Assembly: GCA_965224195.1 (NCBI GenBank)
Contig: OZ245040.1
Location: 1,152,001 to 1,216,000, forward strand
DNA length: 64,000 nucleotides
Direction of reading: 5' to 3'
From: Nitrosopumilus sp.
Lineage (GTDB): Archaea > Thermoproteota > Nitrososphaeria > Nitrososphaerales > Nitrosopumilaceae
The position numbers and the translations under genes were made by a program. Positions 11,335-27,675 of the stretch are shown piece after piece. Position 1 is the first letter of the stretch, and every line of letters begins with the position of its first letter. The notes under the pieces are model-generated. The model worked only from the letters and a program-made list of their open reading frames with translations. It was not told the origin of the DNA and did not search any database.

Positions 11335-11335
11335 A

Positions 11336-12118: not shown

Positions 12119-12163
12119 GTGTAATTTTAGTTGGCTTTCACCATATATTAGGTATTTTGAAAA

Positions 12164-12454
12164 TTAAAATCCTTCAGGTGGTCTTTGAACAAAAACATTG
12201 CAAACTAGCGCATCTGTTTTTTCATCTCTATATTGCACATTACATGACACAAATTTTCCTTTGAGTGCTCTCTCTAAATCTTCTTTAGTTTTCTCTTCGT
12301 ATTGTGGTTGTGCAGGATCATCGATTTTACTCATTATTACTTTTTCAACTTTACCATATTGTTCTGTGTTGTCTTTTCTTGTATGACTGACTAGTAATTC
12401 AAAAGCATTGTTTGTAAGAATTGAAAGTACTGCGCCACCTATTCCATCTCCCAT
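12164..12454 (-). CDS. hypothetical protein (possible thermonuclease-like OB fold)
   Basis: 96-aa ORF co-oriented with mqnD; ...KIDDP...LERALKGKFVSCNVQYRD. Confidence 0.7.
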   Translation of the reverse strand: MGDGIGGAVLSILTNNAFELLVSHTRKDNTEQYGKVEKVIMSKIDDPAQPQYEEKTKEDLERALKGKFVSCNVQYRDEKTDALVCNVFVQRPPEGF

Positions 12455-12480
12455 GGTACTATTTTTTTTCGGTTCTATAA

Positions 12481-13308
12481 TTACTTGCTGGCAATACTAA
12501 TTTCAAAGTCTGGAACAAGCCCTTTCTCTTTTGCCATTTGGAATAGTCTTCTGATTGATTCCTCTCCTGGGTCTCCCATGTTTACAGTTACGTGGTTTAC
12601 ATACATTTTTACAAATTTCTCAATTAGACTTTGTTCTTTACCTCTGGCATATTGCATTGCATATTCTATTGCATCCTCAAAATACTCAATTCCAAACTCT
12701 ATTGATTTTTGCAGATATTTGTCAAACTTTGCTATTGTCTCCATGCCTAGGTCTGTTTTCATGACATTAATCCCTAAAGGTACTGGAAGACCATTTGTGG
12801 TTTTATTCCACCATTCACCAACATCTAAAATTTTGACATTGCCTTCTTGTTCATATGATAATTGAGTTTCATGAATTACTAATCCAGCATCTACTTTACC
12901 TGATTTTACAGCTTCTGGAATATCACTGAAATTCATCTCAACGTAATCAAACTTTCCAATCATTAATTGCAATAGTAAGAATGCCGATGTCATTTTTCCA
13001 GGAATTGCGATTTTGCATTTTTTAATCTCATCAATGCTCATCTGTTTTTTAGCAGTAACAATTGGACCATAGTTAATTCCAAAACTCCCACCACTTCTCA
13101 AGATTGTATATCCTGGGATAAATGCACATGCATGAACTGAAACTGCAGTTACATCAAGTTCTGGATCTGTTGCTTTACGATTTAATTTCTCAATATCTTC
13201 AATAACATGATTTACTGTAAATTCTGGAGATGGAACTTTGCCTGTAAACATTCCATAAAACATGAATGCATCATCTGAATCAGGAGTGTGGCCTACAGAA
13301 ATTTCCAT
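12481..13308 (-). CDS. mqnD: 1,4-dihydroxy-6-naphthoate synthase MqnD
   Basis: GHTPDSDDAFMF, DIEKLN, AIPGKMTSA, GLVIHE, LPVPLG, MYVN motifs; start set at MEISVGH. Confidence 0.9.
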   Translation of the reverse strand: MEISVGHTPDSDDAFMFYGMFTGKVPSPEFTVNHVIEDIEKLNRKATDPELDVTAVSVHACAFIPGYTILRSGGSFGINYGPIVTAKKQMSIDEIKKCKIAIPGKMTSAFLLLQLMIGKFDYVEMNFSDIPEAVKSGKVDAGLVIHETQLSYEQEGNVKILDVGEWWNKTTNGLPVPLGINVMKTDLGMETIAKFDKYLQKSIEFGIEYFEDAIEYAMQYARGKEQSLIEKFVKMYVNHVTVNMGDPGEESIRRLFQMAKEKGLVPDFEISIASK

Positions 13309-13461
13309 ATCTATTTCCTTGATTCTGGTAATAAATACCAAAAAGAAGAGAGAGTGAATCCATTTGTGGTGTGAAAAAAGAATCTCAATGTTTCTAACCG
13401 TATGATCTACTGATCTTTTGAAAAACTAAGGTTTAATACCTGAATCCAAAGTTTTGCGAAT

Positions 13462-15654
13462 ATGGCAAAATTCAAGTCTACTGACGAGGTAATGAAAATT
13501 ATCAAGAACAAGGGCAATATTCGTAACTTTGGTGTTATTGCCCACGTTGACCATGGAAAGACAACAATGAGTGACAGCCTTTTGGCAAACTCTGGAATTA
13601 TTGCTCCCTCAGCTGCTGGAAAAGCACTTGCAATGGACTTTGATAAAGAAGAGCAAGAAAGAGGAATTACAATTTACCAAGCAAACGTTACTTTGCTCTT
13701 TGCCCAAAAAGATCAAGAATATGTAATTAACATGATTGATACCCCAGGCCACGTCGACTTTAGTGGAAGGGTAATTCGAAGTCTCAGAGCAATTGATGGT
13801 GCAGTAGTAGTTTGTGATGCAGTAGAAGGTATCATGACACAAACAGAAACTGTAACTAGAATGGCCCTTGAAGAGCGAGTAAAACCTGTTTTGTTTATCA
13901 ACAAAGTGGATAGGCTCATCAAAGAATTACGATTAACTCCAGAAAAAATGCAAGCACAATTAGCAGAAGTAGTCTCAAATTTCAATACCCTCATTGACAC
14001 ATATGCAGAACCAGAATACAAAGAGAAATGGAAAGTATCCATTCAAGATGCAAGTGTAACATTTGGTTCAGCAAAAGACAGATGGGCAATTAACACTGAT
14101 TTAATGAAAGAAAGAGGAATAACATTCAAAGATGTAATTGATGCATATACTGAAGAAAAACTAGATGCTCTTATTGAAAAAGCACCACTAGCTGATGCAG
14201 TACTTGGAATGGTAGTAAAACATCATCCAGCACCACACGAAGCAATTCCTTACAGAATTCCACAAATTTGGAAAGGTAACTTGGAATCAGATATTGGCAA
14301 AGCTTTGCTTGCAGGTAAAGATGATGGTCCAACTATTATGATGGTTGTAAACATGGTGCTAGATCCTGCAGCAGGTCCTGTTGCAATTGGAAGATTATTT
14401 TCAGGTACAATCAAAGACGGTCAAACTTTACACATTATAGATGAGAAAAGAGAAGGCAGAGTTCAATCAGTCAATTTCTTTATGGGTAACCAAAGAGAAC
14501 AAGTTGGCGAATTGGGTGCAGGAAACATTCCAGCTTTATTGGGATTAACTGAATGTAGAGCAGGAAACACACTATCATCTGTTAAAGGAATTCCAATGTT
14601 TGAAGGTGTGAAATATGTCTCAGAACCAGTCGTTCAAATTGCAATAGAGCCAAAACATCCTAAAGATTTACCTAAACTCGTAGATATTTTAAGACAATTA
14701 ACAATTGAGGATCCAAATTTAGTTGTAAAAATTGATGAGGAATCTGGTGAGACAATTGTTGCAGGAATGGGTGTATTACACTTGGACGTTGCAGTACACA
14801 GAATTCAGGATGCAAAATGTGACATTATAACTTCAGAGCCATTAATCAATTACAGAGAAACTGTAAAGGGTACATGTGAACCAATTATGGCTAAATCACC
14901 AAATAGACACAATAAAATTTTCATGAAAGTAGAGCAACTAGAACCAGAAATTGCACACATGCTAAGAACTGGTGAAATTTCAGATGTTAAAGATAAAACT
15001 GTAGTAAAAGATTTGTTGAAAAATGCAGGATGGGATACTGATACAATCAAGAGAGTTATGAAATTTGATTCACGTGGTAATGTTTTGATTAACGGAACAA
15101 AAGGTGTTCAATTTGTACAAGAGTCAACTGATTCTATTAATTCAGGATTTGAAGAAGTAATGAAAGAGGGTCCTCTCTGTAAAGAACAGATGAGGGATTG
15201 TAAATTCATCTTTACTCACTTTGTTCCTCACGAGGATACAGCACACAGAGGTTTGTCCCAATTAGGACCTGCATCAAGACGTGCATGTATGGGTGCTTTG
15301 TTAACTGCAGGTACTGCAGTGCTAGAGCCAACTCTAGCAATTGAAGTTCGTGTACCAACTGATTTGGTTGGTAATGTTGCAACTATTCTTTCAGGTAAAC
15401 GAGGTAAAGTCCTTGACATGTCACAAAAAGGCGCATCAAGTATTGTAATTGGTGAGATTCCAGCATCTGAGACTTTTACACTATCAGAAGCTATGAGAGG
15501 TCAGACTGCCGGTCGTGCAACCTGGAATACATCATTCAAAGAATGGACAGAAGTTCCAAAATCCATGTTAGAAGCAGCAGTAGCTGATATTAGAAAGAGA
15601 AAAGGATTAGCACCAGAACCACCAGGTGTTGGCGAATTTATCGATAAAGCATAA
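13462..15654 (+). CDS. fusA: archaeal elongation factor 2
   Basis: AHVDHGKT, RGITI, DTPGHVDF, NKVD, diphthamide loop HEDTAHRG. Confidence 0.99.
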   Translation: MAKFKSTDEVMKIIKNKGNIRNFGVIAHVDHGKTTMSDSLLANSGIIAPSAAGKALAMDFDKEEQERGITIYQANVTLLFAQKDQEYVINMIDTPGHVDFSGRVIRSLRAIDGAVVVCDAVEGIMTQTETVTRMALEERVKPVLFINKVDRLIKELRLTPEKMQAQLAEVVSNFNTLIDTYAEPEYKEKWKVSIQDASVTFGSAKDRWAINTDLMKERGITFKDVIDAYTEEKLDALIEKAPLADAVLGMVVKHHPAPHEAIPYRIPQIWKGNLESDIGKALLAGKDDGPTIMMVVNMVLDPAAGPVAIGRLFSGTIKDGQTLHIIDEKREGRVQSVNFFMGNQREQVGELGAGNIPALLGLTECRAGNTLSSVKGIPMFEGVKYVSEPVVQIAIEPKHPKDLPKLVDILRQLTIEDPNLVVKIDEESGETIVAGMGVLHLDVAVHRIQDAKCDIITSEPLINYRETVKGTCEPIMAKSPNRHNKIFMKVEQLEPEIAHMLRTGEISDVKDKTVVKDLLKNAGWDTDTIKRVMKFDSRGNVLINGTKGVQFVQESTDSINSGFEEVMKEGPLCKEQMRDCKFIFTHFVPHEDTAHRGLSQLGPASRRACMGALLTAGTAVLEPTLAIEVRVPTDLVGNVATILSGKRGKVLDMSQKGASSIVIGEIPASETFTLSEAMRGQTAGRATWNTSFKEWTEVPKSMLEAAVADIRKRKGLAPEPPGVGEFIDKA

Positions 15655-15699
15655 ATTTTTTTTAAAAAACTTATACCTAGAATATTTTTAATTAGAATT

Positions 15700-15918
15700 G
15701 TGGTTAGTAATGATGATATTCGAGAATATACCAAGAAAAAATATGGATATTCTGTAAAAAATGGATGGATTGCTCATGCCAAAGAACATTACAATTTAGA
15801 TGTAAATCAGGCACATAATCGCTCAGGTGAGAGAAAATGGCCTTGCCCTAAGAAGAGATTAGTAGAATTTGAAGAAATTTTTACTTATTTTGGGTTGTTA
15901 AAAAAGACAAAAAACTAG
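15700..15918 (+). CDS. small basic hypothetical protein
   Basis: 72 aa; IREYTKKKYGYSVKNGWIAHAKE...PCP; first gene of the island. Confidence 0.7.
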   Translation: MVSNDDIREYTKKKYGYSVKNGWIAHAKEHYNLDVNQAHNRSGERKWPCPKKRLVEFEEIFTYFGLLKKTKN

Positions 15919-17258
15919 TTAGATATTGTCTCTTTTTTATCAAGAATCCTAAAAATGGATTTTCCTGTTTCTGGTTCGATTTCCCATTCAACTTGTTTTA
16001 ATTCCGCTAGCCTTCCCATAGTTGCTACTCTCCACCCTTCAATGTATTTAGCATTTGTTTTATCTAGTATTTTTTCACCTATTTCTTCGTCCATTTCATA
16101 CTCTATTTTTGCAAACTCACATCTTGTTGAAATTTCTGGATTGGATTCAACAAATTCATTATTTGCTCTAATAATTTCTTGATCTAAAACCTTGGCTATA
16201 GGTACTTGTTGTAATGTTGGATCAAATTGATATTTCTGAACTGTCTCTAATGCAACTTTGTGAAATAAACTCTCTAATTTTATTTCAGGAATAATTTTTC
16301 CAATAATGTATTCTCTTTCATCTTTTGATAGTCCTTGTGAATAGTCTTGATTCAAAATTGGATTATCTAATAGATAGAATTCTTTACCTTTTTTAGTTAG
16401 TGAAATGAATTCCTCTTTTCCTTCTTTAGATAATACAGCAAATCCTAACGCAGCTAGCATTCCTTCAAAATACAATTGTTTATCGTTTCTGTCTTTTCGT
16501 GTCTTTCCAATATATTGATCTCTGAATCTTTTCTGAACTGAAACATTATCTTCTGCATCATTACTTAATTTTGGAAACCCTGTAGATATTTTTTTAGCTC
16601 TTTTAATAGAGTTTTTTGTTTCAAACTCTATAATTTTTTCATTAAATTCTGCAGCAATATCTAATGCATCTGCTCTTAATGCTTTTAGGTTTATTTTACT
16701 CAATGATGGATTCTTTCGTAACAAATCAGATAATACTGCCAGTACAATTTTGGATGGAGCAAATCTACTATAGAATCTAAATAATATTGGGTAATCATCA
16801 AATGTAATTACAGAGTTACTTGGTGTTGTAATTTTAAAATTTCTAATATATGTTCGAGTATCTTCTAAATTATTAATTAATTCTAAATAATCATTTTTTG
16901 AGTCTCTTTTTTCTTTTAATCTTAATTCCTCATTGATTGATGGTTTATCTGGTCCTGCAACATATTCTTGATATACTTCTTTTTTGAGATTGCTTTGCAT
17001 CATTTCTTTTTGTTCATCTGTCTGTGGGTATCCTTTCATGACATCCATTGATGATTTTGGGTCCAATTCCCATGTCAGTAATATTTGGATGGCTCTATCA
17101 AGAAATGCTTCTGGATTTCTAAATCTCTGCTTTTTTACTAGTTCATCAATTTTTTTTGCATCTTCATTTAGTGGTATGTACTTTATTTTAGATCCCAATA
17201 TACAATATAATCTATTTATGTTATAAGTATTGTAGTAATATCCATTTTTAACACACAT
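15915..17258 (-). CDS. large hypothetical protein with N-terminal RHH/CopG-like segment (true start probably near 17198)
   Basis: IDELVKKQRFRNPEAFLDRAIQILL; wHTH-like ISLTKKGKEF; long intact ORF. Confidence 0.75.
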   Translation of the reverse strand: MCVKNGYYYNTYNINRLYCILGSKIKYIPLNEDAKKIDELVKKQRFRNPEAFLDRAIQILLTWELDPKSSMDVMKGYPQTDEQKEMMQSNLKKEVYQEYVAGPDKPSINEELRLKEKRDSKNDYLELINNLEDTRTYIRNFKITTPSNSVITFDDYPILFRFYSRFAPSKIVLAVLSDLLRKNPSLSKINLKALRADALDIAAEFNEKIIEFETKNSIKRAKKISTGFPKLSNDAEDNVSVQKRFRDQYIGKTRKDRNDKQLYFEGMLAALGFAVLSKEGKEEFISLTKKGKEFYLLDNPILNQDYSQGLSKDEREYIIGKIIPEIKLESLFHKVALETVQKYQFDPTLQQVPIAKVLDQEIIRANNEFVESNPEISTRCEFAKIEYEMDEEIGEKILDKTNAKYIEGWRVATMGRLAELKQVEWEIEPETGKSIFRILDKKETISN

Positions 17259-17298
17259 TTTAATTTGCGATCGTAATATTTTAAGAATTTAGGCATAA

Positions 17299-17820
17299 AT
17301 GTACTGCTTTTGGATCTATTATATTGAAGAGAAACCATTTATGTTAAACATAAAGAATTATATAATATACTTACGTACAATATACATGGTCGCAACAACA
17401 CATGGAAATAAACTCGTTCTAGATACTTGTGTCATAATCAATATTCTGGAGAATAGGTCAGTAGCTGATCTAATCAAATGTCATATTGATACTGAAAATT
17501 GTAGAGTTTATCTAAACAGTGTATCCCTTGATGAAGCCTCAAGAAAAGGATACGGCAAAAAACAACTAGTTTCAAAAATTTCAGAATACTTGGATACTTT
17601 GGTAATTGTAAAAGAAGTGACTAATGAGAATTACATCGAAGCCCAAAAATTAGAAGATAATTGTTCTTTAATTCATCATGGTGATTCTGCAATTGCAGCA
17701 TTTTCAGTTGAGAATAAATCAACTTTGGTTACATATGACAAAGAACTTCTCAAAGGATGTAATGTTGTAGGAATTCCAACTTTTAATCCAAACATGATTT
17801 TAGGAGGAATGACAGCATGA
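17299..17820 (+). CDS. PIN-domain protein (start probably MVATTHG)
   Basis: LVLDTCVII...SLDEA...GDSAIAA...LVTYDKEL acidic PIN residues. Confidence 0.9.
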   Translation: MYCFWIYYIEEKPFMLNIKNYIIYLRTIYMVATTHGNKLVLDTCVIINILENRSVADLIKCHIDTENCRVYLNSVSLDEASRKGYGKKQLVSKISEYLDTLVIVKEVTNENYIEAQKLEDNCSLIHHGDSAIAAFSVENKSTLVTYDKELLKGCNVVGIPTFNPNMILGGMTA

Positions 17821-18680
17821 GTCTAATATCTATTCCTGAAGCATATTCTCTTAGCACTGGTATTGAAGTTGAAGGAATTGTAAAATCTATGGAAAAAGGC
17901 AAATGGGTTTGGATTAATTATTTACAAGATTACAAACGTGTTTGTAATGCAAAATTAACTGATGGTAAAGACAATAAGATAAATATTGCATTTTGGGACG
18001 ACGATATTCTTGCAGTTAGAAACAATCTAAAAATCCACATTACTGATGCAGAATGGGATGACACAAAAAAAGTTCTTTACAAAACAAAATTTGGTTCAAT
18101 AATTGTTTTAGGCTTTAATCCTAATTTAATTAAAAATGACATCATCAATATTAAAAAACGAAAGAAGATAATTTCTTTCAAAGAATACCAAAAACATGTT
18201 GAAAATAGCCCTGACCTCATGTATCTTGGCAAAGATAAAAAAGAATATTTACTTATCACAAAAGCATTTACTCAAATTGAAAAATATGCATCAAAATTTA
18301 GAAACAGTGGTGTATCACAAGCAATAAAATATTTGCATAATAGAATCACCCTTTCAGCAGAACAAATTCATACAATTCTTAAAATCTTTAATATTTCTGT
18401 TCCATGTGACAGAATTTTAAGAAATTCTATTCCTTCTAAACTGAAAGAAAATAAAATAATTCATACTAAAAATTCATACAAAATAAATATAAAAAAGAGT
18501 GATTCGGATTCTATTCATTTAGAGACAATTATTGCAGAAAATGTTGAAGGACCAAGATATACAGAACTACCTAGTGAAATATCTGTTAATGAGGTATCTT
18601 CAGATAGTAAATTTACGCCTATAATGATAGAAGATACTAAACATTGTGGAAATTTTGACACATATGGAGATTCAGCATGA
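17817..18680 (+). CDS. OB-fold (RPA/SSB-like) domain protein with C-terminal extension
   Basis: IEVEGIVKS...VCNAKLTDG..KINIAFWDDDI..KIHITDA; ATGA overlap with PIN gene. Confidence 0.7.
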   Translation: MSLISIPEAYSLSTGIEVEGIVKSMEKGKWVWINYLQDYKRVCNAKLTDGKDNKINIAFWDDDILAVRNNLKIHITDAEWDDTKKVLYKTKFGSIIVLGFNPNLIKNDIINIKKRKKIISFKEYQKHVENSPDLMYLGKDKKEYLLITKAFTQIEKYASKFRNSGVSQAIKYLHNRITLSAEQIHTILKIFNISVPCDRILRNSIPSKLKENKIIHTKNSYKINIKKSDSDSIHLETIIAENVEGPRYTELPSEISVNEVSSDSKFTPIMIEDTKHCGNFDTYGDSA

Positions 18681-18762
18681 TAAATTAAATTAAAAAGAAT
18701 ACATTGTGTCATGAGAGTTTAAAAGATGTCAACATACATCAAAAAATAGGAGACAATTAAAC

Positions 18763-20115
18763 ATGGTCCAAAATAAAATTGATAAAAAAGCAGCTCAAAA
18801 GATTTTAGATTATATTGATACTAATGATGTTGAAACTGCTAGAAAAGGAGATATTATTGTAAATGGGAAAACTGAACAAAAATTGGCTCACACATTACCG
18901 AGAAGTCTTTTAAAACTAAATATTGACAATCATCGTTTTAGTACTGCAATCGAGACATTAAGGCAAGAACGAAAAGAAGAAGGTAAATCCCCTGAATTGA
19001 ATATGGGTAATAAATCCGACATAGATGAAATTAGAAATATGCTTAGGGGAATTAACCCCTTAAATTCAAATAGAAAAACACAATACAATAAACTATTACA
19101 AGAAGTAAAAGAATATTCAATAGAAAATTCTGGCAATGGATTAACAGCCTTGACCATTGTTACCGCTGATGGAATATACGTTAATGGAAATAGACGAGAT
19201 ACTGTTTTAGAAGATTTAACAGAACAAGAAAATAAAAAGAAACTAGGTGGATTACCCCAAAAATATGAAGATATTGAGGTAATAGTTTGTCCAGATACAC
19301 TCACTGCATCAGACATACGTCAAATGGAATTAAAAGAACAAGTTGGTCTTAGTCTTCGTGATGAATATGATAAAATGAATACCGCATTATTGATTAAAGA
19401 AGAATATGAAACCTTACTTGAAGGTAAGGGACCAGGTAAAGAAAGTGAGGTAAAAAATATAATTGCAAGTAGAATTGCAGGTAAAGACAAAACGCATGTT
19501 AGTGATTATTTAAAATTTTTAGAATTTGTAGATCTAGTACTTGAAGCACTAGATAAAGAGGGAGAATATTATAAAATTAACACAAAAACTGATAATGAAA
19601 AAGATTCGCAACCAGTCACAACCATTTGTATTGAATTTCAAAAGCAATGGGAAAAAGTAGAATCAAGTAAACAAAAAACAAATGTTGTTTATCATTGTGC
19701 AGCATATTGTCAGGGTGTTTTTAATCAACCAAAAGCAGATTCAGGAGATTATAAATTCAATTCAAGAAGTAAAAGAATTTTAAGTTCTGCTTTAAACAAA
19801 AAAAGTGCTAAACAATTACTGGACAATTATGATATGACTGATTTTGACTTTAGTTCCGATGCAGAGGTTAAAAAATATGGAACTATGTTACAACAGGTTG
19901 AAGACAAAGCAAAAAATGAAACGTGGTTAGAAACTCCAGAGAAACTCCTGAAATCAATAGAAGGTTCACTTTTTACTATAGATGAGGCATTATCTACATC
20001 TGAAAGTAAAAAAGTAAAAGCAAGATTAGAGCATGTACACGTAAAAAGATCTTTAAAATTATTTGTAGAGATTATAGATAAAATTGAGCATAAAATGAAA
20101 ACAATAAAGGATTAA
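18763..20115 (+). CDS. ParB/Srx-like domain protein
   Basis: LNIDNHRF and IVTADGIYVNGNRRDTVL (GxxR motif); helical C-terminus. Confidence 0.75.
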   Translation: MVQNKIDKKAAQKILDYIDTNDVETARKGDIIVNGKTEQKLAHTLPRSLLKLNIDNHRFSTAIETLRQERKEEGKSPELNMGNKSDIDEIRNMLRGINPLNSNRKTQYNKLLQEVKEYSIENSGNGLTALTIVTADGIYVNGNRRDTVLEDLTEQENKKKLGGLPQKYEDIEVIVCPDTLTASDIRQMELKEQVGLSLRDEYDKMNTALLIKEEYETLLEGKGPGKESEVKNIIASRIAGKDKTHVSDYLKFLEFVDLVLEALDKEGEYYKINTKTDNEKDSQPVTTICIEFQKQWEKVESSKQKTNVVYHCAAYCQGVFNQPKADSGDYKFNSRSKRILSSALNKKSAKQLLDNYDMTDFDFSSDAEVKKYGTMLQQVEDKAKNETWLETPEKLLKSIEGSLFTIDEALSTSESKKVKARLEHVHVKRSLKLFVEIIDKIEHKMKTIKD

Positions 20116-20122
20116 GGTATCT

Positions 20123-22150
20123 GTGATTCAAATCAAATTTTCTAAACTGGATTCAAATATATTTCAAATTGAAACAGATGAAAAATTAAGTCCATATGTT
20201 AGAATAAATCTAAAACAAGAAAATTTTAAAAATACTGAAAATAAATTGGTTTGGCAAAAAACATCTGACGATAATCAAACAATTGAAATAATTTATGATT
20301 TATTTAGTGAGAATAGGTATGAAATTATTCCAAATCCAGAAATAAAAAAAATTATAGACAATTTTGAACATCTAAAAAAAGAATATGAAAAATTTGTGGA
20401 GATAGGTACAGAATTAAAAAAGAATAGAAATCCAACTTTACCTAAAATAGAATTAGAACAAGGAATATCTCTAAAACCTTATCAAAAAATGCCCGTTAAC
20501 CATATGATAACTATACCCAATACTGCAAATTTTTCCATTCCTGGTTCTGGAAAAACCCTAATGACATTATCATCATTTAATATTTTAACAAATCAGAATA
20601 AAATAGATCAAATGTGGGTTATTGGTCCATTGGCTTCATTTAAAGCATGGGAGATGGATTACGAAAAACTATTTGGTAAATCAATATCCAAACATACTCT
20701 TCGTTATCATGGAACTCCAGTAGAACGTAAAAAATTAAGAGGCCAAATAAAAGACAAAGATATAATCATTACATCATATGGTACGGCAAATAATGATTTA
20801 GAATTAATTAAAAATTTGTGGAAATATAATAATAAAAAAATATTATTAGTACTAGATGAATCTCATCACATTAAATCTATTGAAGAAACAACTACAGACG
20901 GCAACGATACAATGTCTTCTAAAATGATTCAATTGGGAAAATATGCTAATAGAAGATGCATTTTGACAGGTACTCCAATTCCTAGAAAGTTAGAAGATCT
21001 CTGGTCACAAATAACGTTTTTGTGGCCACATATTGAACCATTCAAAGAACTTTACGGGGGATCCCGTAGAGAATTTGAGAGATATGTAAAAGACGAATTT
21101 GGTGCAGAAGAAAAAATTAAAGAGATAATTAATTTCATGTGGAGTAGAGTTACAAATAAAGAAATGGCACCAGAAATGCCAGAAAGACATTCTCATCCAA
21201 TTAAAGTTATAATGGATTCAACTCAGCAGCAAATCTACCATATCATCAAACATCAAGCTGCAAGTGAGATGGATGAAGGTAGAAGTCAAGATGCAGTTAG
21301 AAAATTAAAAAAAGCAACTATCATCAGATTATATCAGACTGTAACAAATCCTAGATTAATATCTGAAAATGATGGAGATTTCCAAATTGATGGATTAAAG
21401 ACTGTCGAGAGAAAAGGAGATCAAGATATTTTGAATCTTATTTCAGAATATGACGGTACAAAAACCACTCCAAAAATTGAAGCGATAGCAGAACATGCAA
21501 GGGAATTATCCACAGGTATTGGAAAACGTGCATCAAAGAATGGACCAAAAAATATATTAATTTTTACTATTTTCAAAGGAACGGTAGATGACATTGCAAA
21601 AAAACTCAAGGATTTAGAGCCATTAGTAGTGAAAGGAGACATTGATGGAACAATTAGAGAGGACATATATGAAAAATTTAAAAATTGGAAATTTCCAAAT
21701 GGTTATGGAAAAATTTTAATTGCAACTATTGGTTCCGTAGCAGAATCTGTGTCATTACATAACAATAAAAATAATGAACCTGTATGCCAAAATGTAATTT
21801 ATGCAGAAAGAAGTCACAATGCAGGTCAATACATGCAATCACTTTTTCGAGTTTATCGTGTAGGTTCTAAAAAGGAATTAGACATACATTATTATTTTTA
21901 TCAAAGTATTTTTGATGGAGGAATTACTTCAATAGATGATACCGTTGACGGTATTTTAACTGCTAGAACAAATAGAATGTTTGATATTTTAGGTGATGAG
22001 TTCATAATGAAACCAATGTCATTAGGAATAGATACAAAAGATGATAAAAAGAATTATGATGAAAATGAGAAATTAAGTGATATTGATGATATCGATGAAA
22101 TAGAGGATGAAATTTTTAAAAAGGAAATCCCAAAGGAGAATTTAAATTAA
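20123..22150 (+). CDS. SNF2-family helicase/ATPase
   Basis: LKPYQ, FSIPGSGKT, LDESHHIK, LTGTP..LEDLWSQ, QSLFRVYRVG. Confidence 0.92.
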   Translation: MIQIKFSKLDSNIFQIETDEKLSPYVRINLKQENFKNTENKLVWQKTSDDNQTIEIIYDLFSENRYEIIPNPEIKKIIDNFEHLKKEYEKFVEIGTELKKNRNPTLPKIELEQGISLKPYQKMPVNHMITIPNTANFSIPGSGKTLMTLSSFNILTNQNKIDQMWVIGPLASFKAWEMDYEKLFGKSISKHTLRYHGTPVERKKLRGQIKDKDIIITSYGTANNDLELIKNLWKYNNKKILLVLDESHHIKSIEETTTDGNDTMSSKMIQLGKYANRRCILTGTPIPRKLEDLWSQITFLWPHIEPFKELYGGSRREFERYVKDEFGAEEKIKEIINFMWSRVTNKEMAPEMPERHSHPIKVIMDSTQQQIYHIIKHQAASEMDEGRSQDAVRKLKKATIIRLYQTVTNPRLISENDGDFQIDGLKTVERKGDQDILNLISEYDGTKTTPKIEAIAEHARELSTGIGKRASKNGPKNILIFTIFKGTVDDIAKKLKDLEPLVVKGDIDGTIREDIYEKFKNWKFPNGYGKILIATIGSVAESVSLHNNKNNEPVCQNVIYAERSHNAGQYMQSLFRVYRVGSKKELDIHYYFYQSIFDGGITSIDDTVDGILTARTNRMFDILGDEFIMKPMSLGIDTKDDKKNYDENEKLSDIDDIDEIEDEIFKKEIPKENLN

Positions 22151-22163
22151 TTAAATCCATAAC

Positions 22164-23130
22164 ATGAAAGCAAATATTTCTGATTTAGTTTGTATTTTAA
22201 AATATTTTAATAATTCCAAAAATATTGAAAAAAAATATTTATTTTTTTAATTAAATCGAGACACAACAAGAATCAATTGGGTTAAACTGTATAATTTAGG
22301 AATAGAATTAAAAATTTTAAATGAAAATAAAAGCATTGCTAAAATTACATCCAAAGGAAAAGTATTCTATTCAATGTCAAATAATTCTTCAGAATTAAAC
22401 ATTGAGCAAAAATTATTTATTTTTACAAATGGAGTTTTGGATAATCCATCATTTAAAGTAATTAATAATTTTTTAAAATTATTTACTCTCAATAATCAAA
22501 GATGATTTAGAATTTTATAAAAAACAAAAGGGTTATGAAAAATTGAGAAGCAGTGATACTGACATTTTATTTGAATTAAATGTATTAAATTATGAAACAA
22601 ACAAAATAACAATCAATGAAAAATTTGCAGAAATCTTATTACATCAAAAATTATTGGGCAAGTCGGAATTATCTCAAAGTGAATTTGATCGAATTTTAGA
22701 TGAACAAAAAAGAATTGGAGATTTAGGTGAGAAATTAACACTAGAATATGAAAAAGATCAATTTAAGAAGAAAAGATGGAATTATCAAGAAAAAAATGTG
22801 AGAATAATTGGGAAAAAAAATATACGTAAAGGATATGATCTAGAGTCATTTTTAACACAAAAATCTAGACTCAATTCTGAGGGAATAGCTGATAAACACA
22901 TTGAAGTTAAAAGTAGAAAATATGATGAATTTTCATTTATAATTTCTGCAAATGAATTAAAAATTGGAAAGATTCTATCTGAGAGAGAAAATCATGAATA
23001 TTTGATATATTTTTGGAATAATTTAGGAAGCAAAAATTTGCCTACATCCCCGGTGAAAATTATGTCATTTAAAAAATTGAATGTTACACCTTGCAAGAAT
23101 TGTCTCAACTATTTTGTATCTTTAGATTGA
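22164..23130 (+). CDS. DUF3883 (NO VEIN C-terminal)-like PD-(D/E)xK nuclease; 5' part broken in this sequence
   Basis: IGDLGEKLTLEYE...GYDLES...IEVKS...ISANE in 22543-23130; the upstream frame from ATG 22164 joins across an in-frame stop and a frameshift in A/T runs. Confidence 0.8.
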
Positions 23131-23207
23131 TCTTAGAAAATTAACTTATTTTGATGAGTATAAAATAATCAAAAAAAAAACCTATAAGAGATAATCTTAG
23201 TCAAAAA

Positions 23208-24092
23208 TTGAACAATTTGTTAAAATCAACTCAAAGACTTAATGTAATTTATCGTAGTGACTGTTTAAACAAATTAAAAAAATTAGATTCTAATTCTATA
23301 GATTTTATTATTACTTCTCCTCCGTATGCAGATAGCAGAAAAAAAACATACGAAGGCGCTTCTGCAGATAAATATGTGAACTGGTTTTTACCTATTTCAA
23401 AAGAACTTAAACGTGTTTTAAAACCTAGAGGCTCTTTTATTTTAAATATCAAAGAAAGAGTTGTTGATTCTGAACGTAGTACATATGTTCTAGAATTAAT
23501 TCTAGAGATGCGAAAACAAGGATGGCTGTGGACTGAGGAGTATCTTTGGCATAAAAAAAATTCTTTTCCTGGAAAATGGCCAAATAGATTCCGAGATGGG
23601 TGGGAAAGATGCTTGCATTTTACAAAACAGAAAAAATTCAAAATGTATCAAAAATCAGTCATGGTGTCTAAGGGAAAATGGACAGAGTCTAGACTCAAAA
23701 ATCTTTCTGAGACTGATATGGAACGTGATAAATCTCGCGTGATGAGTGGATTTAGTAAAAATGTATCCAATTGGTTGGATAGGGATCTGGCATACCCATC
23801 TAATGTCATTCATATGGCAACTGAATGTTCTAATGTAAGTCATAGTGCCGCATTTCCTGTATCTTTACCTGAATGGTTTATCAAATTATTTACAAAAGAT
23901 GAGGATGTTGTATTGGATCCTTTTATGGGGAGTGGCACTACTGCTGTAGCTGCAACAAAATTAAATCGTAATTATATTGGAATGGAAAAAAATACGTTAT
24001 ATCATAAATATGCAAATAAAAGAATTAGAATTTTTAAGAAAGAACTTGAAGCAAATTTAAAATCTAAAAATAAATTAAAAATTTCTAGTTAG
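23208..24092 (+). CDS. beta-class amino (N4-C/N6-A) DNA methyltransferase
   Basis: ITSPPY motif IV N-terminal; HSAAFP; VLDPFMGSGTT motif I C-terminal. Confidence 0.95.
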   Translation: MNNLLKSTQRLNVIYRSDCLNKLKKLDSNSIDFIITSPPYADSRKKTYEGASADKYVNWFLPISKELKRVLKPRGSFILNIKERVVDSERSTYVLELILEMRKQGWLWTEEYLWHKKNSFPGKWPNRFRDGWERCLHFTKQKKFKMYQKSVMVSKGKWTESRLKNLSETDMERDKSRVMSGFSKNVSNWLDRDLAYPSNVIHMATECSNVSHSAAFPVSLPEWFIKLFTKDEDVVLDPFMGSGTTAVAATKLNRNYIGMEKNTLYHKYANKRIRIFKKELEANLKSKNKLKISS

Positions 24093-24242
24093 CTTTTTTA
24101 AAAAGTGATTTTTGACCAAATTGATTTTAGTTGAATGTATTTTTCTCTGAATCTATTTTTCAGTAACAATATGTTGGAAAACTACATTATTCTTTAAAAA
24201 TTCTTAAAAAATCATATAATGATCATACTCTATAGAATACTA

Positions 24243-24728
24243 ATGTCGCTTGACGTCTCATCATTAATTCAGGCATTAAACAAGTCAAAACTAGTTGCAA
24301 AATGTCCGCACTGTGGAGATGAGTTCCGCCTTTCAAAGTCGCTTCTTTTTGACGGAAGAGGGAAATTTCCCGACAAGGCAGAAATAAGAAGACTGGAATT
24401 GTTCGAGGAGCTCAAAGACAGAGCCACAGATCTCTTGGAAAAACAAAAGAGAGCAACAACAAAATCAGAAAAAACAGCAGTAGCCGTAGGAATTGGAAAG
24501 ATTATTGAGAAAATTTTTCCTGCTCACAAGAATTTTGATCTGATCCCCTCTGATTGCAGATTCCTTGCAGAGCCAATAGATATGATAATCTTTGATGGAG
24601 TGTCTGAAAACAAGGTAGACAAGATAACCTTCATGGATGTAAAGACAGGTGGTGCCACACTCAACAAACATCAGAGACAAATCCGAGATGCGATAAATGA
24701 TCACAACGTAAAGTGGGAGTCATACTAA
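24243..24728 (+). CDS. Holliday-junction-resolvase-like endonuclease (Endonuc_Holl type)
   Basis: CPHC knuckle; GKIIEK..P, RFLAEPIDMIIFDG..ITFMDVKTG..LNKHQRQIRDAI. Confidence 0.85.
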   Translation: MSLDVSSLIQALNKSKLVAKCPHCGDEFRLSKSLLFDGRGKFPDKAEIRRLELFEELKDRATDLLEKQKRATTKSEKTAVAVGIGKIIEKIFPAHKNFDLIPSDCRFLAEPIDMIIFDGVSENKVDKITFMDVKTGGATLNKHQRQIRDAINDHNVKWESY

Positions 24729-25237
24729 TGGTACAATCCTTTGTTGAGATGTTTAATCAGCTAAAGACTATTCACTGCATGTGTTCTAACTGTGATAATA
24801 TAATGAGGGCAAGTGATTTGAAATTGATCTCTAAAGAAAAAACAGACAAAACATGGCTTGATACACATGATGTAAAAACAAAACAGATAGACAAAAAAGA
24901 AGATAAGTTTGCAGAAGAAGAAGGTAAAATTAGAGAAGAATCTCGAAAGAGAGGGAGAGACCAAGTTCCAAAATTAATCAATCAATCGCTAAACAAGAAT
25001 TTCTTAAAACTAAAGTATGATCCGTATGATGTCAAGGCAATTCTACATCCAGTTGATTTTATTGCATTCAAAGGAATGAATGACGGACAAGTTGAACATG
25101 TCTCTTTACTGTCAAATAAAACAACAAACCCTCACATGCAAAGTCTTCACAAGGCAATTGCAGAAGCAATCAAGACAAAATCATATGATTGGAAAGTATT
25201 GCATGTAGCCGAAGATGGTGAGGTTGCCTACAAATAA
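24728..25237 (+). CDS. paralogous Endonuc_Holl-type protein with degenerate catalytic motif
   Basis: CSNC knuckle; HPVDFIAFKGM..VSLLSNKT lacks the acidic residue of D/E-x-K; TAATG coupling to previous gene. Confidence 0.8.
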   Translation: MVQSFVEMFNQLKTIHCMCSNCDNIMRASDLKLISKEKTDKTWLDTHDVKTKQIDKKEDKFAEEEGKIREESRKRGRDQVPKLINQSLNKNFLKLKYDPYDVKAILHPVDFIAFKGMNDGQVEHVSLLSNKTTNPHMQSLHKAIAEAIKTKSYDWKVLHVAEDGEVAYK

Positions 25238-25258
25238 ATTAAAAATTGAGCATGAAAT

Positions 25259-26653
25259 ATGACTAATTCTAAACAAATAAGAAAATTTGATCTAAATATT
25301 GAAGAAGTTTTAGAGAATTGGGACGTATATCATGCAATAAGAGAAATTATTGCAAATGCCATTGATGAACAGATACTAACAGATACACAAGAAATTGAAA
25401 TTAAAAAAGAGAAAAATAGTTTTGTAATTCGTGATTATGGACGCGGTGTGAAATATGAACATCTAACTCAAAATGAAAATAAGGAAAAGATATCCCACCC
25501 AGAATTAGTTATTGGAAAATTTGGAGTGGGTTTGAAGGATGCATTAGCCACATTTGATAGACATAAAATCAAAATTATGCTAAAATCAAAATATGGAGAT
25601 ATCACAATTGATAAATCATCCAAATTTGGATTTGAGGATGTTATTACACTTCATGCAGTGATTTCTCCCCCATCAGAATCCAAAATTGTTGGAACAAAGA
25701 TAATTCTTGAAGGATGTACAAAAAATGATGTAGAAAAAGCAAAAAATCTCTTCTTAAAATTTTCAGGTGAAAAAATGTTAGAAAGAACACAATATGGTGA
25801 AATTCTACAAAAAGATTCTATTTCAAAAATTTACATTAATGGAATCAAAGTTGCAGAAGAAGATAACTTTCTTTTTTCATATAATATTACTTCATTAACC
25901 AACGCAATGCGAAAAGCTCTAAATCGTGAAAGAACACATGTTGGAAGAACTGCATATACTGAACGAGTTAAATCTATTTTGCTTTCAAGTAATGATGAAA
26001 AAATTGCCCGATTACTAGTAGATGATCTTGAAGGATATCAAAAAGGTACAGAACATGATGAAATGAAATACATCGATGTTGCAGTGCATGCATGTAAAAT
26101 ATTGAATACTTCATCATCAGTAGTTTTTGTAACACCCCAACAATTACAATATGACACTATGGCCATAGACAATGCTAGAAATGATGGATTGGCAATAATT
26201 GTTGTACCTGAAACAATTAGTCACAAAATACAAGGTATGAAAGATATTTCTGGAAATATAATGCGTGATTTGGGACAATACAATCTGGAATGGAATGAAA
26301 GTTTTGAATTCAAATTTGTAAAACCCTCTGAATTAACATTAAACGAACGTAAAATCTATGATAAGACATTCGATATTTTCAATTTAATTGGAGGCAAACC
26401 AAACATAATCAAAAATATTTCAATATCTGAAACTATGCGTAGAGAATTTTCTGGAAATGAAGCACTTGGTATTTGGGAGCCAAGTATTAAGAGAATAGTT
26501 ATCAAACGAGAACAACTCACAAAAATTGAATCATATGCAGGTACACTACTTCATGAAGCCGCACATGCATTAAGTGGAGCAGGTGATGTATCGCGAGAAT
26601 TTGAAATGGAATTAACTAACATTATTGGTAAAATTTCTGATAAATCAATCTGA
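25259..26653 (+). CDS. GHKL (HATPase)-type ATPase fused to a C-terminal zincin metallopeptidase motif
   Basis: AIREIIANAID, IRDYGRG, IGKFGVGLK; C-terminal GTLLHEAAH. Confidence 0.85.
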   Translation: MTNSKQIRKFDLNIEEVLENWDVYHAIREIIANAIDEQILTDTQEIEIKKEKNSFVIRDYGRGVKYEHLTQNENKEKISHPELVIGKFGVGLKDALATFDRHKIKIMLKSKYGDITIDKSSKFGFEDVITLHAVISPPSESKIVGTKIILEGCTKNDVEKAKNLFLKFSGEKMLERTQYGEILQKDSISKIYINGIKVAEEDNFLFSYNITSLTNAMRKALNRERTHVGRTAYTERVKSILLSSNDEKIARLLVDDLEGYQKGTEHDEMKYIDVAVHACKILNTSSSVVFVTPQQLQYDTMAIDNARNDGLAIIVVPETISHKIQGMKDISGNIMRDLGQYNLEWNESFEFKFVKPSELTLNERKIYDKTFDIFNLIGGKPNIIKNISISETMRREFSGNEALGIWEPSIKRIVIKREQLTKIESYAGTLLHEAAHALSGAGDVSREFEMELTNIIGKISDKSI

Positions 26654-26662
26654 GAAAATAAA

Positions 26663-27111
26663 ATGATTAACCAAATAAAATTCAAAGTGCAAGGGCGACC
26701 ACCACGAAAGACAGAAGATAAATCTTGCTGGTCCGTTAACAGTAAAGAATGGAAATACATCTACAAGCTTAAAGAAGAGGCATTTGAAGCAAAGAAATTA
26801 GCAGGTGTTGATGATTATTTTAAAACAAATGCAAAGATTTCAATTATTATCAATACACCCTATTTGACAAAAAAAGATGAAAATCTCCACATTGGCGATC
26901 TTGACACATTTGTAGCGGGAATTTTTGAAGCAATCCAACCTGCACACCCCAAAATGATACATTAGATATTGATGAGAAACTGAAAAATCACCCTGATTTT
27001 GGTTCTAAAATTTCTTTGTTAGTAGAAGATGATTCTTACATTACTGAAGTTAATGCCAAGAAAATTAAAAATGATGAAACATTTTATGAAATAGAAATTA
27101 CTGATGCATAA
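26663..27111 (+). pseudogene. RusA-like resolvase, frameshifted near 26960
   Basis: FKVQGRPP..K, GDLDTFVAGIFEAI, then VEDDSYITEVNAKK in a shifted frame. Confidence 0.65.
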
Positions 27112-27261
27112 ATCATTCATTTGAACACACACTTTGTTCGTTCATTTGAACAAACAATATCTACGCCTATAACTGCCAAAACCACTCATTATCCGCCATT
27201 CAATGACATTCATTACCATTCATTACCAATAGTTATATACCGCAAATTTAATCCCAATAAC

Positions 27262-27675
27262 ATGAGTACACAATCTCAAACCAGCGACGCATTTGCAATG
27301 TACAAGCAAAATGTTCAGAAATACTTTGAAAATATTTCAAAACTAACTCCACAATATTTTCAATCTGCAACAGAATTGCAAAACGAATGTATGAAAACTT
27401 GTCAAAAAACAATTAACGCTACAGTATCAATGCAACAAGAATTTGCAAAGAAATCAGGAATCAATACTGAAATTCCAGACTCTGCAAAAACTGCACTAGT
27501 TGATACAAACAAGCAAATTGTTCAAGCAAGCACAGTAAACAACCAAATGGCAAAAACTGCTATTGAGGCAACTGTTCAAAATTTCAAAACATTTAACGAC
27601 AATGTTAATGCCTTTGCTGAATTAAACAAAAACATTATCCAAACCTGGGTAACTCCTTTCGCACAAACAAAATAG
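27262..27675 (+). CDS. phasin-like amphipathic helical protein
   Basis: Q/N/T/A-rich helical 137-aa protein starting MSTQSQ; TATA-like TTATATAC just upstream. Confidence 0.55.
   Translation: MSTQSQTSDAFAMYKQNVQKYFENISKLTPQYFQSATELQNECMKTCQKTINATVSMQQEFAKKSGINTEIPDSAKTALVDTNKQIVQASTVNNQMAKTAIEATVQNFKTFNDNVNAFAELNKNIIQTWVTPFAQTK

Follow-up and report, generated by a model that had tools for sequence, protein, structure and literature searches.

A mosaic accessory island at the 3' end of ef-2 in a Nitrosopumilus genome and its probably Hma-like, restriction-type cassette

The closest described relative of the gene cassette reported here is Hma (HmaA/HmaB/HmaC; "Type-1 BREX-related"). HmaA joins an SNF2 helicase to DUF3883 in one protein, HmaB is a methyltransferase with DUF1156 (PMC11232893; PMC12839542), and the DUF3883 domain of HmaA is a nickase that is required for defense (PMC11232893). 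The site at which the cassette lies has a literature of its own. The thaumarchaeal family-1 casposons integrate most often at ef-2, and those of Nitrosopumilus carry nucleases, methyltransferases, and HEPN proteins as cargo (PMC6563490); the family-1 casposase of N. koreensis has a 13-bp target sequence (PMC8464041).

We analyzed a window of 64,000 nucleotides from a Nitrosopumilus sp. (contig OZ245040.1, positions 1,152,001 to 1,216,000); all coordinates below are positions in this window unless another contig is named. An earlier note, made from the sequence alone, had proposed an undescribed archaeal defense island of eleven contiguous genes, holding one to three systems, at 15700-27111.

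A variable site behind ef-2 and its accessory island

Comparison by blastn with six relatives showed that homology ends at 15655-15663 on the left and resumes at 27116-27209 on the right, and therefore the limits proposed earlier were accurate; the homology breaks give an island of 15658-27115 (Table 1). The open reading frames (ORFs) between the ef-2 stop codon (15654) and the right flank are indeed contiguous and number twelve. The GC content of the whole window is 0.323 and that of ef-2 is 0.377, so that the island is AT-richer than ef-2, as had been suspected. The block contains no integrase, Cas1, or tRNA, which agrees with the earlier statement that no integrase was visible, and there were no hydrophobic segments in any island protein.

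TABLE 1 Features of the island and its flanks
Feature	Position	Strand	Basis or remark
ef-2 (aEF-2), left flank	13462..15654	+	TIGR00490, 805.6 bits, exceeds cut-off
Island	15658..27115	.	Strain-specific, 11.46 kb, GC 0.294
72-aa basic protein	15700..15918	+	phrog_27283, 3e-11
447-aa protein, PIN partner	15915..17258	-	Nitrosopumilaceae-restricted family, 78 unnamed homologues
PIN-domain nuclease	17299..17820	+	PF01850, 1.2e-6, 29.6 bits (cut-off 23.6); divergent from 447-aa gene
287-aa protein	17817..18680	+	Start overlaps PIN stop
ParB/Srx-like protein, 450 aa, trio gene 1	18763..20115	+	Fold matches and invariant motif
SNF2-family helicase, 675 aa, trio gene 2	20123..22150	+	PF00176, 6e-25; without nuclease domain
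DUF3883/NOV_C PD-(D/E)xK nuclease, trio gene 3, broken	22164..23130	+	PF13020, 8e-9
N6/N4 DNA methyltransferase, intact	23208..24092	+	PF01555, 1e-44; PADLOC MTase_II, 6e-50
Endonuc_Holl (HJR-like) nuclease copy 1, N-terminal Cys pair	24219..24728	+	PF10107, 2.8e-25
Endonuc_Holl nuclease copy 2	24713..25237	+	PF10107, 2.1e-16
GHKL ATPase, C-terminal HEAAH (zincin-type) motif	25259..26653	+	PF13589, 25.5 bits, just at cut-off; phrog_6077, 1e-19
Last gene, frameshifted, 147-153-aa family	26663..27111	+	N-terminal part 26663-26965; C-terminal part 26929-27111, other frame
Right-flank conserved gene	27121..27675	+	Immediately behind ef-2 or close to it in relatives (80-83% aa identity)

A DNA search of 24 same-genus relatives gave no match to the block at the ef-2 locus, and the gap at this junction is variable, measuring 0.13 kb (G017), 0.22 kb (G019), 2.3 kb (G015), 5.5 kb (G003), 9.4 kb (G014), and 14.7 kb (G012). 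In some relatives the site is empty. Other cargo found there is of two types, one combining TIR, SRA-HNH, and NERD proteins and the other combining CARF, PIN, and beta-CASP-type nuclease proteins. G012 has a Cas1/pPolB casposon at the same junction, and in G023 a Cas1 fragment adjoins ef-2. The 13-bp target of the N. koreensis family-1 casposase has its counterpart in the last bases of ef-2 in the window, 15640-15652 (ATCGATAAAGCAT). Because ef-2 is the commonest target of family-1 casposons (PMC6563490, which the earlier note did not cite), the 3' end of this gene is a hotspot. The block is an accessory island within it, at a site that family-1 casposons target in this genus, and the earlier reading of a hotspot instead of a syntenic core was borne out.

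The island shares its integration locus and the kinds of cargo with NitAR1-C1 and the other family-1 casposons of Nitrosopumilus, but it differs from them in having neither Cas1 nor pPolB (by profile search), no terminal inverted repeat, and no clear target duplication. A search for a duplicate of the 13-bp target gave a 10/13 match at 27104-27116, but the window contains 31 matches versus 35.5 expected, which is the chance level.

The island is decaying in this genome, with a stop codon plus a frameshift in the DUF3883 gene and a further frameshift in the last gene. These two broken genes had escaped the earlier note. A second copy of a 1.1-kb segment (22982..24104, + strand), 98% identical, lies elsewhere in this genome (G000:C1:785095-786216); the read contigs are interrupted at 22988.

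The ParB-like/SNF2/DUF3883 trio and its methyltransferase

The island does not hold one system; it is a mosaic whose modules move independently, and the largest of them is a four-gene cassette for a ParB-like protein, an SNF2 helicase, a PD-(D/E)xK nuclease with DUF3883, and a methyltransferase acting on DNA. The 450-aa product of the first gene had no Pfam, PADLOC, or NCBIfam match. When its AF2 model (pLDDT 89.6) was compared to structures in the PDB, the top seven matches, and nine of the ten best, were to ParB, Noc, Spo0J, or pNOB8-ParB, although these matches were weak (probability 0.90-0.97 with E 0.06-0.1 for the top matches; E 0.06-0.3 and TM 0.2-0.48 over the whole set). The motif DG..NGNRR is invariant in the family, which comprises 1,306 clusters at 50% identity (E≤1e-10), and the plasmid proteins that a bacterial member matches carry the annotation "ParB N-terminal domain-containing." The fold matches and the motif support the label ParB-like, as proposed earlier, but do not prove it, given the lack of a Pfam match and the weak fold E values.

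The SNF2 label was confirmed. In PADLOC the best matches of this protein were to ZorD and DpdE, with DrmD also matching weakly, and the ZorD and DpdE similarity is confined to the helicase core. No ZorA, ZorB, or ZorC match was found to accompany it, nor a hydrophobic segment, as Type I Zorya would have; likewise DrmA/B/C, DpdA/B/C, and PglZ/BrxC were not found, which leaves the weak helicase-core matches to DrmD and DpdE as the only trace of DISARM, Dpd, or BREX. The DUF3883-like nuclease suggested earlier is recognizable by its Pfam match, but a stop codon interrupts its gene at about 22248-22250 and the frame shifts at about 22499-22507, leaving an open remnant at 22543-23130. Its alignment with the intact 324-aa homologue of locus L038 is split between two frames and crosses an in-frame stop, and the broken sequence is also present in contigs of three runs.

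The ParB-like gene was present in 8 of 401 Nitrososphaeria genomes. Six of the seven carriers other than our own were fetched, and in all six the ParB-like gene is followed by the SNF2 gene and then by a gene for a DUF3883 protein of 318-330 aa. Among metagenome loci, SNF2 came next after the ParB-like gene in 61 of the 62 with enough sequence, and DUF3883 came next in 48/48. These loci have GC contents of 27-62%, and an Azospirillum plasmid has the same gene order, annotated as hypothetical, DEAD-box helicase, and DUF3883. The trio is a strictly conserved operon found in both Archaea and Bacteria, and the description of the system as archaeal was too narrow.

Nearly every cassette includes a methyltransferase, though of varying family. 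It adjoins the trio in 35 of 43 loci; there was none among the ORFs examined in the other eight, three of which are too short to judge. The families are PF01555 short, PF01555 long (DUF1156/HmaB-like), D12, C5, and type IIG-like. The methyltransferase in the window, correctly called an amino-methyltransferase in the earlier note, is a 294-aa PF01555 protein and is 65-82% identical to the trio-adjacent methyltransferases of five relatives. An EcoO109I-like restriction endonuclease lies beside the orthologous methyltransferase in three of six relatives, and no type II restriction endonuclease was recognized in the window; the methyltransferase may in part serve neighboring type II enzymes instead of the trio.

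The trio has no name in PADLOC 2.0, NCBIfam, or the literature searched, and no PADLOC 2.0 system covers the block, in keeping with the earlier decision to assign it to no named system. Hma, which was not considered at that time, resembles the cassette in combining an SNF2 helicase, a DUF3883/NOV_C PD-(D/E)xK nuclease, and a DNA methyltransferase, which in some cassettes is DUF1156/HmaB-like. HmaA is one protein of about 1,150 aa, whereas the cassette splits helicase and nuclease between two genes; it also lacks a DUF499 ATPase, is led by an obligatory ParB-like protein, and varies in methyltransferase family. The cassette could be simply a split form of Hma and nothing new, which would suit the domain content of HmaA and HmaB in the papers cited above, the weak PADLOC HmaA matches of the relatives' SNF2 and DUF3883 proteins (5.6e-11 and 6.5e-6), and the HmaB matches (1e-23 to 1e-18) of the long methyltransferases beside the trio in G033, L065, and L072. 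(Similar long PF01555 proteins occur in L059, L083, and L105.) We consider this quite improbable. The window's SNF2 protein did not match the HmaA model at E≤0.01; a scan of 14 proteins from the island and its flanks found no HmaC/DUF499 ATPase, and neither did the cassette neighborhoods examined show one; the obligatory ParB-like protein has no Hma counterpart; and most cassettes have short PF01555, D12, or C5 methyltransferases. The window's own 294-aa methyltransferase is not an HmaB.

Type III restriction-modification (R-M) systems likewise have a PF01555-family methyltransferase, an SF2 motor, a PD-(D/E)xK nuclease, and presumed self-protection by methylation, but the cassette motor is of SNF2 type and separate from the nuclease, with no Res-type fused protein and with an extra ParB-like subunit. 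The nuclease domain is shared with PD-T4-1 and PDC-S36, the DUF3883 proteins of PADLOC (the window fragment matched at 3.7e-12 and a full-length relative at 1.8e-15); these are scored as single-gene entries, whereas the nuclease here takes third place in a fixed trio.

The other modules of the island

Separate from the cassette are the 447-aa/PIN pair, the Endonuc_Holl nuclease pair, and the GHKL-HExxH gene of phage type, for each of which domains and context suggest a role in defense. Three further genes are small or uncharacterized. In the co-occurrence comparison called for in the earlier note, the trio stayed together, but the other modules separated from it.

The PIN label held, as did that of the 72-aa protein as small and basic (K+R 21%); in G017, G090, and G335, homologues of the latter have cargo of a similar kind nearby. 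The 447-aa family is present in 21 of 301 family genomes, with PIN divergently adjacent in 15 of 20 loci other than our own. No RHH domain, as had been assigned to this protein, was found in Pfam or fold searches, and its AF2 model (pLDDT 85.6) gave no convincing fold match. A PIN-domain nuclease recalls VapBC-type toxin-antitoxin modules, but its conserved partner here is this divergent 447-aa protein, not a small codirectional upstream antitoxin, and the gene is not classed as VapBC. The 287-aa protein matched no family in Pfam, PADLOC, NCBIfam, or PHROG profile searches, and only its N-terminal 61 aa are conserved, in G017; its supposed OB fold found only weak leads in the Atlas (0.86-0.88).

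Both HJR-like nucleases were identified correctly, and G033 has a comparable pair next to its trio. The GHKL-zincin label also stood, the HEAAH motif being visible. The Atlas clusters of this GHKL-HExxH family carry PF25856 and are largely viral, and the gene occurs in unrelated contexts in G014 (twice), in G009, and on a verrucomicrobial contig; it is a stand-alone mobile gene of a largely phage-borne family. The island shares with Tiamat a GHKL ATPase (a weak sacsin-type match, NF047352, 26.7 bits, below cut-off) and a DUF3883 nuclease, but here GHKL and NOV_C are on separate, nonadjacent genes 2 kb apart, and the 464-aa GHKL-HExxH protein, unlike Tiamat-like GHL ATPases, moves independently of DUF3883. 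With an HExxH domain at the end of the GHKL protein and NOV_C on another gene, the island does not encode Tiamat, although a preprint reportedly describes Tiamat-like proteins with a peptidase in place of the nuclease. A GDLD stretch in the last gene may resemble RusA, but the RusA-like label was not confirmed: there was no Pfam match, and neither piece nor the intact homologue P0105 had a sequence match in the PDB.

That all eleven or twelve genes make up one large integrated system is very unlikely. The genes are contiguous and mostly on the same strand, the Endonuc_Holl pair adjoins the trio in G033, and an Endonuc_Holl gene adjoins the 72-aa/447-aa/PIN module in G017. However, the neighborhood counts already contradict a single system: the 447-aa/PIN pair occurs without the trio in 15 loci, nearly all of 80 trio loci lack PIN, GHKL, and Endonuc_Holl (whose profile matched 1/80), and GHKL-HExxH occurs in four unrelated contexts. 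Several independent modules replace the one to three systems proposed earlier.

Genomic context and possible function of the cassette

On chromosomes, the trio lies among R-M, McrBC, and other defense genes, and relatives' cassettes are near a terminase, an MCM helicase, and integrases. Two viral contigs have the ParB-like and SNF2 genes without detectable DUF3883, and on an Exiguobacterium plasmid the same pair stands behind ParA genes; a role in element maintenance or counter-defense is therefore possible. The island might be a decayed casposon or other integrated element whose genes serve the element (by maintenance, partition, counter-defense, or self-methylation) and not the host. Its position at a casposon target, where G012 has Cas1 and pPolB and G023 a Cas1 fragment, is consistent with this, as are the phage families matched by the 72-aa and GHKL-HExxH proteins, the trio's occurrence on plasmids and the two viral contigs, the terminase, MCM helicase, and integrase neighbors, and the two pseudogenes. 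We nevertheless think it unlikely, since the island has no Cas1, PolB, integrase, terminal inverted repeat, or clear target duplication in it or at its ends, and the trio usually has a methyltransferase coupled to it and sits amid chromosomal R-M, McrBC, and other defense genes. Such coupling and such neighbors are the usual signature of defense cargo, and mobile elements carry cargo of this kind too.

The reading that we prefer, and consider reasonably probable, is that the island is a hotspot mosaic containing an Hma-like, R-M-type four-gene cassette, its nuclease broken here, with the other modules separate. We infer that the cassette acts like a helicase-nuclease R-M system of the Hma kind: the methyltransferase would mark host DNA, the ParB-fold NTP-binding protein would sense, or load on, unmarked DNA, the SNF2 motor would translocate, and the DUF3883 nuclease would nick or cut. 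Because the nuclease gene is broken and the methyltransferase is intact and duplicated, restriction has probably been lost in this genome, leaving methylation alone.

More tentatively, and with somewhat less than even confidence, we propose that the ParB-like/SNF2/DUF3883 trio with an exchangeable methyltransferase is an undescribed, widespread restriction-type immunity of Bacteria and Archaea (about 1,300 clusters at 50% identity). A ParB/Srx nucleotide switch would be the sensor or loader of a split helicase-nuclease, and the casposon target in ef-2 would serve as a landing pad on which such systems gather and decay. Should the cassette prove to confer immunity, the helicase-nuclease/R-M family would gain a defined four-gene type, and the ParB-CTPase fold a role in sensing foreign DNA. 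The locus shows in addition that the ef-2 casposon site of marine ammonia oxidizers is a general exchange point for defense cargo, with its gain, duplication, and decay all visible in one strain, which is useful for mining defense genes in these abundant, genetically intractable archaea.

Content and insertion site of the island

Twelve ORFs lie between the ef-2 stop and a conserved 184-aa gene. The eleven contiguous genes described in the earlier note are contiguous, but the DUF3883 gene and the last gene are broken. Profile searches verified most of the domain labels (PIN, SNF2, DUF3883/NOV_C, N6/N4 methyltransferase, two Endonuc_Holl nucleases, and a GHKL ATPase), and the note's observation was largely right; five proteins (72, 447, 287, 450, and 100 aa) have no Pfam family. 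The island is AT-rich (GC of 0.294 versus 0.377 for ef-2 and 0.323 for the window), as the note had seen for its 16-24 kb part, and, again as in the note, has no integrase; neither a tRNA nor a Cas1 gene was found inside it.

The island is not core: when 40 relatives (24 from the same genus and 16 from the same order) were searched at the DNA level, both flanks were present and the island was absent from the locus. In blastn alignments, the left break in homology was at 15655-15663 and the right one at 27116-27209. Where both flanks were on one contig, the gap at the ef-2 junction was 0.13 kb (relative G017), 0.22 kb (G019), 2.3 kb (G015), 5.5 kb (G003), 9.4 kb (G014), or 14.7 kb (G012). The filling in G003 codes for TIR, SRA-HNH, and NERD proteins, and that in G014 for a beta-CASP-type metallo-beta-lactamase (MBL) nuclease, a PIN protein, a CARF-like regulator, and Endonuc_Holl. 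The filling in G012 is a casposon with Cas1 and a protein-primed PolB; its cargo includes Schlafen/AlbA_2, RiboL-PSP HEPN, and SHOCT proteins. The note's idea of a hotspot was therefore right.

Published work names ef-2 as the gene that thaumarchaeal family-1 casposons target most often (PMC6563490), and the Nitrosopumilus koreensis casposase targets a 13-bp sequence at the end of ef-2 (PMC8464041). The window has a counterpart of this target. Terminal inverted repeats and target-site duplications were sought at the island ends, which yielded AT-rich noise only, and the one candidate second target copy, a 10-of-13 match at the right border, was not above chance. Because inverted repeats and a significant second copy are lacking, a casposon origin of this island is not established. 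In G023, a Cas1 fragment about 0.8 kb away from ef-2 is the second indication in our sample that casposons use this site. The note's reading of one undescribed archaeal island gives way to a mosaic that is decaying at a site already known for casposons. Cas1 is present in 52 of 121 genomes of the genus, and this genome has three homologues outside the window.

The motif repeated at the right border is a candidate operator or promoter for the flank gene. G017 has comparable doublets, and a related motif occurs three times in G012. Elsewhere in the window, a stretch with a GC of 0.25 to 0.28, few long ORFs, and a very strong AT skew (0.41) at 37 to 38 kb could represent a further accessory or repetitive region.

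Coordinates of the features discussed (window positions unless a locus or contig is named)
Feature	Location	Strand	Remarks
ef-2	13462-15654		
Counterpart of 13-bp casposase target	15640-15652		
ParB-like gene	18763-20115		450 aa
SNF2 gene	20123-22150		
DUF3883 gene	22164-23130		
Methyltransferase gene	23208-24092		
GHKL-HExxH gene	25259-26653		
Last island gene	26663-27111		
Right-border motif	27113-27160		TTCATTTGAAC-like, repeated twice, upstream of 184-aa gene
184-aa gene	from 27121		
Low-GC stretch	36001-41000		
Own genome, second R-M cluster	L010 (G000:C1:776000-795999), 7867-12024		391-aa methyltransferase, 49-codon DUF3883 remnant, 98% identical methyltransferase copy; MunI-like endonuclease (PF11407, 6e-49), MT-A70 methyltransferase
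Own genome, Cas1 homologues	G000:C1:947177-948019, 714347-715189, 1455266-1456123		
G012 family-1-type casposon	L011 (G012:C1:872000-891000), ~1841-16589		ef-2 junction
G012 casposon Cas1	L011 14344-15360	-	
G012 casposon PolB	L011 8550-10331	-	protein-primed
G023 Cas1 fragment	G023:C22:14753-15127		ef-2 at 15964-18208
Zorya and GHKL-HExxH	L017 1018-9401		verrucomicrobial contig
KTSC + "integrase repeat" (INT_rpt) proteins	L033 14559-16310, L035 4454-6208		~580 aa
Recurrent 720-730-aa protein	L033 5270-7438, L036 10706-12901, L073 5751-7916		no Pfam or PADLOC family

A three-gene operon of fixed order and its exchangeable methyltransferase

The ParB-like, SNF2, and DUF3883 genes (the trio) form a fixed operon, and the neighboring methyltransferase is nearly constant yet exchangeable. 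The ParB-like gene was found in 8 of 401 Nitrososphaeria genomes, including this one. The trio was compared in six of the seven other genomes, and in all six the order was ParB-like, SNF2 (644 to 670 aa), and DUF3883 (318 to 330 aa), with the genes abutting. The seventh, G133, gave the weakest match (E of 3.5e-5) and had no SNF2 within the 1.5 kb examined. The trio proteins are only 25 to 36% identical between the window and these relatives; a PF01555 methyltransferase 65 to 82% identical to the window's adjoins the trio in five of the six and is accompanied by an EcoO109I-like endonuclease in three of the six.

For metagenomes, we scanned with a ParB-like alignment, analyzed the best 80 of 203 relatives, and scored the loci with profiles made from the seven archaeal cassettes (trio plus methyltransferase). 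Among those of the best 80 loci that extended 600 bp or more downstream, SNF2 came next in 61 of 62 (all but L099); DUF3883 came next in all 48 that had a complete SNF2 followed by a further 600 bp or more. The GC content of the loci ranged from 27 to 62%, and the PD-(D/E)xK signature of the DUF3883 proteins was invariant (n = 34). To score methyltransferase adjacency, Pfam was run on the ORF before the trio and the two ORFs after it (99 of 109 ORFs; the 10 left out were from near-duplicate loci, plus one methyltransferase scored earlier). With the profile scores included, a DNA methyltransferase adjoined the trio at 35 of 43 loci; none was among the ORFs examined at the other eight, three of which were too short to judge. 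Short PF01555 enzymes were the majority; others were of the D12 class (six), C5 (two), or type IIG-like (three), and long PF01555 enzymes occurred at five loci (L059, L065, L072, L083, and L105). Those of L065 and L072, the only two scanned with PADLOC, matched HmaB, DUF1156_MTase, and PglXI, as did the long methyltransferase of G033.

Two IMG/VR viral contigs (L118 and L119) carry ParB-like and SNF2 genes of the same family with no detectable DUF3883. KTSC + "integrase repeat" proteins lie near the cassettes of two relatives (L033 and L035), and so do homologues of the window's 72- and 447-aa proteins. The cassette at L035 (G335), positions 9133-14386, is intact.

State of the cassette and the other modules in this genome

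We compared the window's DUF3883 gene with the intact 324-aa protein of L038, the closest metagenomic cassette. Positions 22176-22499 align in one reading frame that is interrupted by a stop in place of the homologue's glutamine, and 22507-23127 align in a different frame. The stop is a TAA behind a T7 run (~22248-22250), and the frame changes at an A-rich stretch near 22500. Both lesions recurred, in identical sequence with no indels, in contigs from three sequencing runs (depths of 4, 93, and 393) of two samples from one study, which are probably the source culture. The GYD...EVK catalytic part persists as an open 195-codon ORF from which ~125 N-terminal residues are missing; the methyltransferase gene is intact. 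A 1.1-kb segment (22982-24104), including the last 49 nuclease codons, is duplicated 380 kb away with 98% identity, adjoining a MunI-like endonuclease and an MT-A70 methyltransferase. R-M decay usually proceeds by loss of restriction with methylation retained, and this strain has probably lost restriction and kept methylation.

The 447-aa protein has 78 homologues, none functionally named and all from Nitrosopumilaceae-type sources; its gene is in 21 of 301 genomes of the family. PIN was divergently adjacent at 15 of 20 other loci within 1.5-kb flanks, where the trio was not found; the pair is a conserved two-gene unit. Fold searches of PDB and BFVD with the 447-aa model (pLDDT of 85.6) gave no match with a probability above 0.3. 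The 72- and 287-aa genes join the pair only in G017. The 447-, 287-, and 450-aa proteins were considered as ZorA, ZorB, and ZorC and rejected, as membrane segments and matches were absent.

The GHKL-HExxH protein has a visible HEAAH motif and is 80 to 87% identical to copies in G014 (two) and G009 (truncated), which lie beside an SbcCD-like pair, an uncharacterized gene, or HNH and methyltransferase genes near a TraG-like gene. Searching genome contigs with this protein alone found only two loci. In a verrucomicrobial contig, a complete type I Zorya operon (ZorA-D) directly precedes a GHKL-HExxH protein that shares 50% identity with its archaeal counterpart, which suggests recent cross-domain transfer of the gene. 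Because the gene follows ZorD there, we considered it as a partner of SNF2, but dropped this given three other, unrelated contexts. The Atlas groups it with PF25856 clusters that are 45 to 88% viral; the gene is self-contained and probably phage derived.

The Endonuc_Holl pair adjoins the trio again only in G033 and in one of the best 80 metagenome loci. The last gene belongs to a 147- to 153-aa family; residues 94 to 145 of a homologue align with 26929-27108 (83% identity) in another frame, and therefore the gene is frameshifted. No similarity to RusA, the label the note had given it, was detected with either piece or with the intact homologue.

The ParB-like protein, Hma, and a possible mechanism

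A word-indexed search found 25 homologues of the 450-aa protein, all unnamed, and a profile search found 1,306 cluster representatives (E ≤ 1e-10) among 1.84 billion. The top seven PDB fold matches of its AF2 model (pLDDT of 89.6), and nine of the top ten, were ParB, Noc, Spo0J, or pNOB8 ParB-N, with probabilities of 0.90 to 0.97 for the best seven and weak E-values (0.06 to 0.3). A DG..NGNRR motif was invariant across 22 sequences (13 of the 25 homologues, eight locus proteins, and the window protein). Searching PDB sequences with the ParB-like profile gave no meaningful match; a bacterial family member matched plasmid proteins that carry the annotation "ParB N-terminal domain-containing protein." The weak-E fold matches support a predicted ParB fold with an arginine box. 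The predicted complex of the ParB-like and DUF3883 proteins of L038 scored 0.23 against a mark of 0.32, a value that does not speak to binding either way. Nine of the 80 loci have two ParB-like genes, and in such cassettes a recurrent 720- to 730-aa protein adjoins the second paralogue.

PADLOC 2.0, a check the note had proposed, had no match for the ParB-like protein of the window or of three of three relatives, and no member of the trio has a name in NCBIfam release 20. The SNF2 proteins match PADLOC ZorD, DpdE, DrmD, PbeA, and, weakly, HmaA via the helicase core; full-length DUF3883 proteins match PDC-S36, PD-T4-1, TmtA, and the HmaA C terminus (6.5e-6). The operon is not described in the open-access full text searched or in main-text passages on Hma, Tiamat, BREX-related, Dnd, and ParB-CTPase systems; the Hma, BREX-related, and Tiamat supplements may list split or ParB-linked variants. 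Hma, the closest known system, has an SNF2-DUF3883 fusion, a DUF1156 methyltransferase, and a DUF499 ATPase, whereas in the cassette helicase and nuclease are split, DUF499 is absent, and the ParB-like gene is obligatory.

The cassette is probably a modification-dependent system for telling self from nonself. The methyltransferase would protect host DNA, and the ParB-like protein, as a nucleotide switch, would recognize or clamp unmodified DNA and recruit the SNF2 translocase. The DUF3883 nuclease would then nick or cleave the DNA, by analogy with the DUF3883 domain of HmaA, a nickase required for defense (PMC11232893). The trio also occurs on an Azospirillum plasmid (annotated as hypothetical protein, DEAD/DEAH box helicase, and DUF3883 domain-containing protein), and the main alternative is that the cassette serves mobile elements themselves, which we consider unlikely. 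The cassette is the most interesting content of the island: a widespread and apparently unnamed Hma-like variant.
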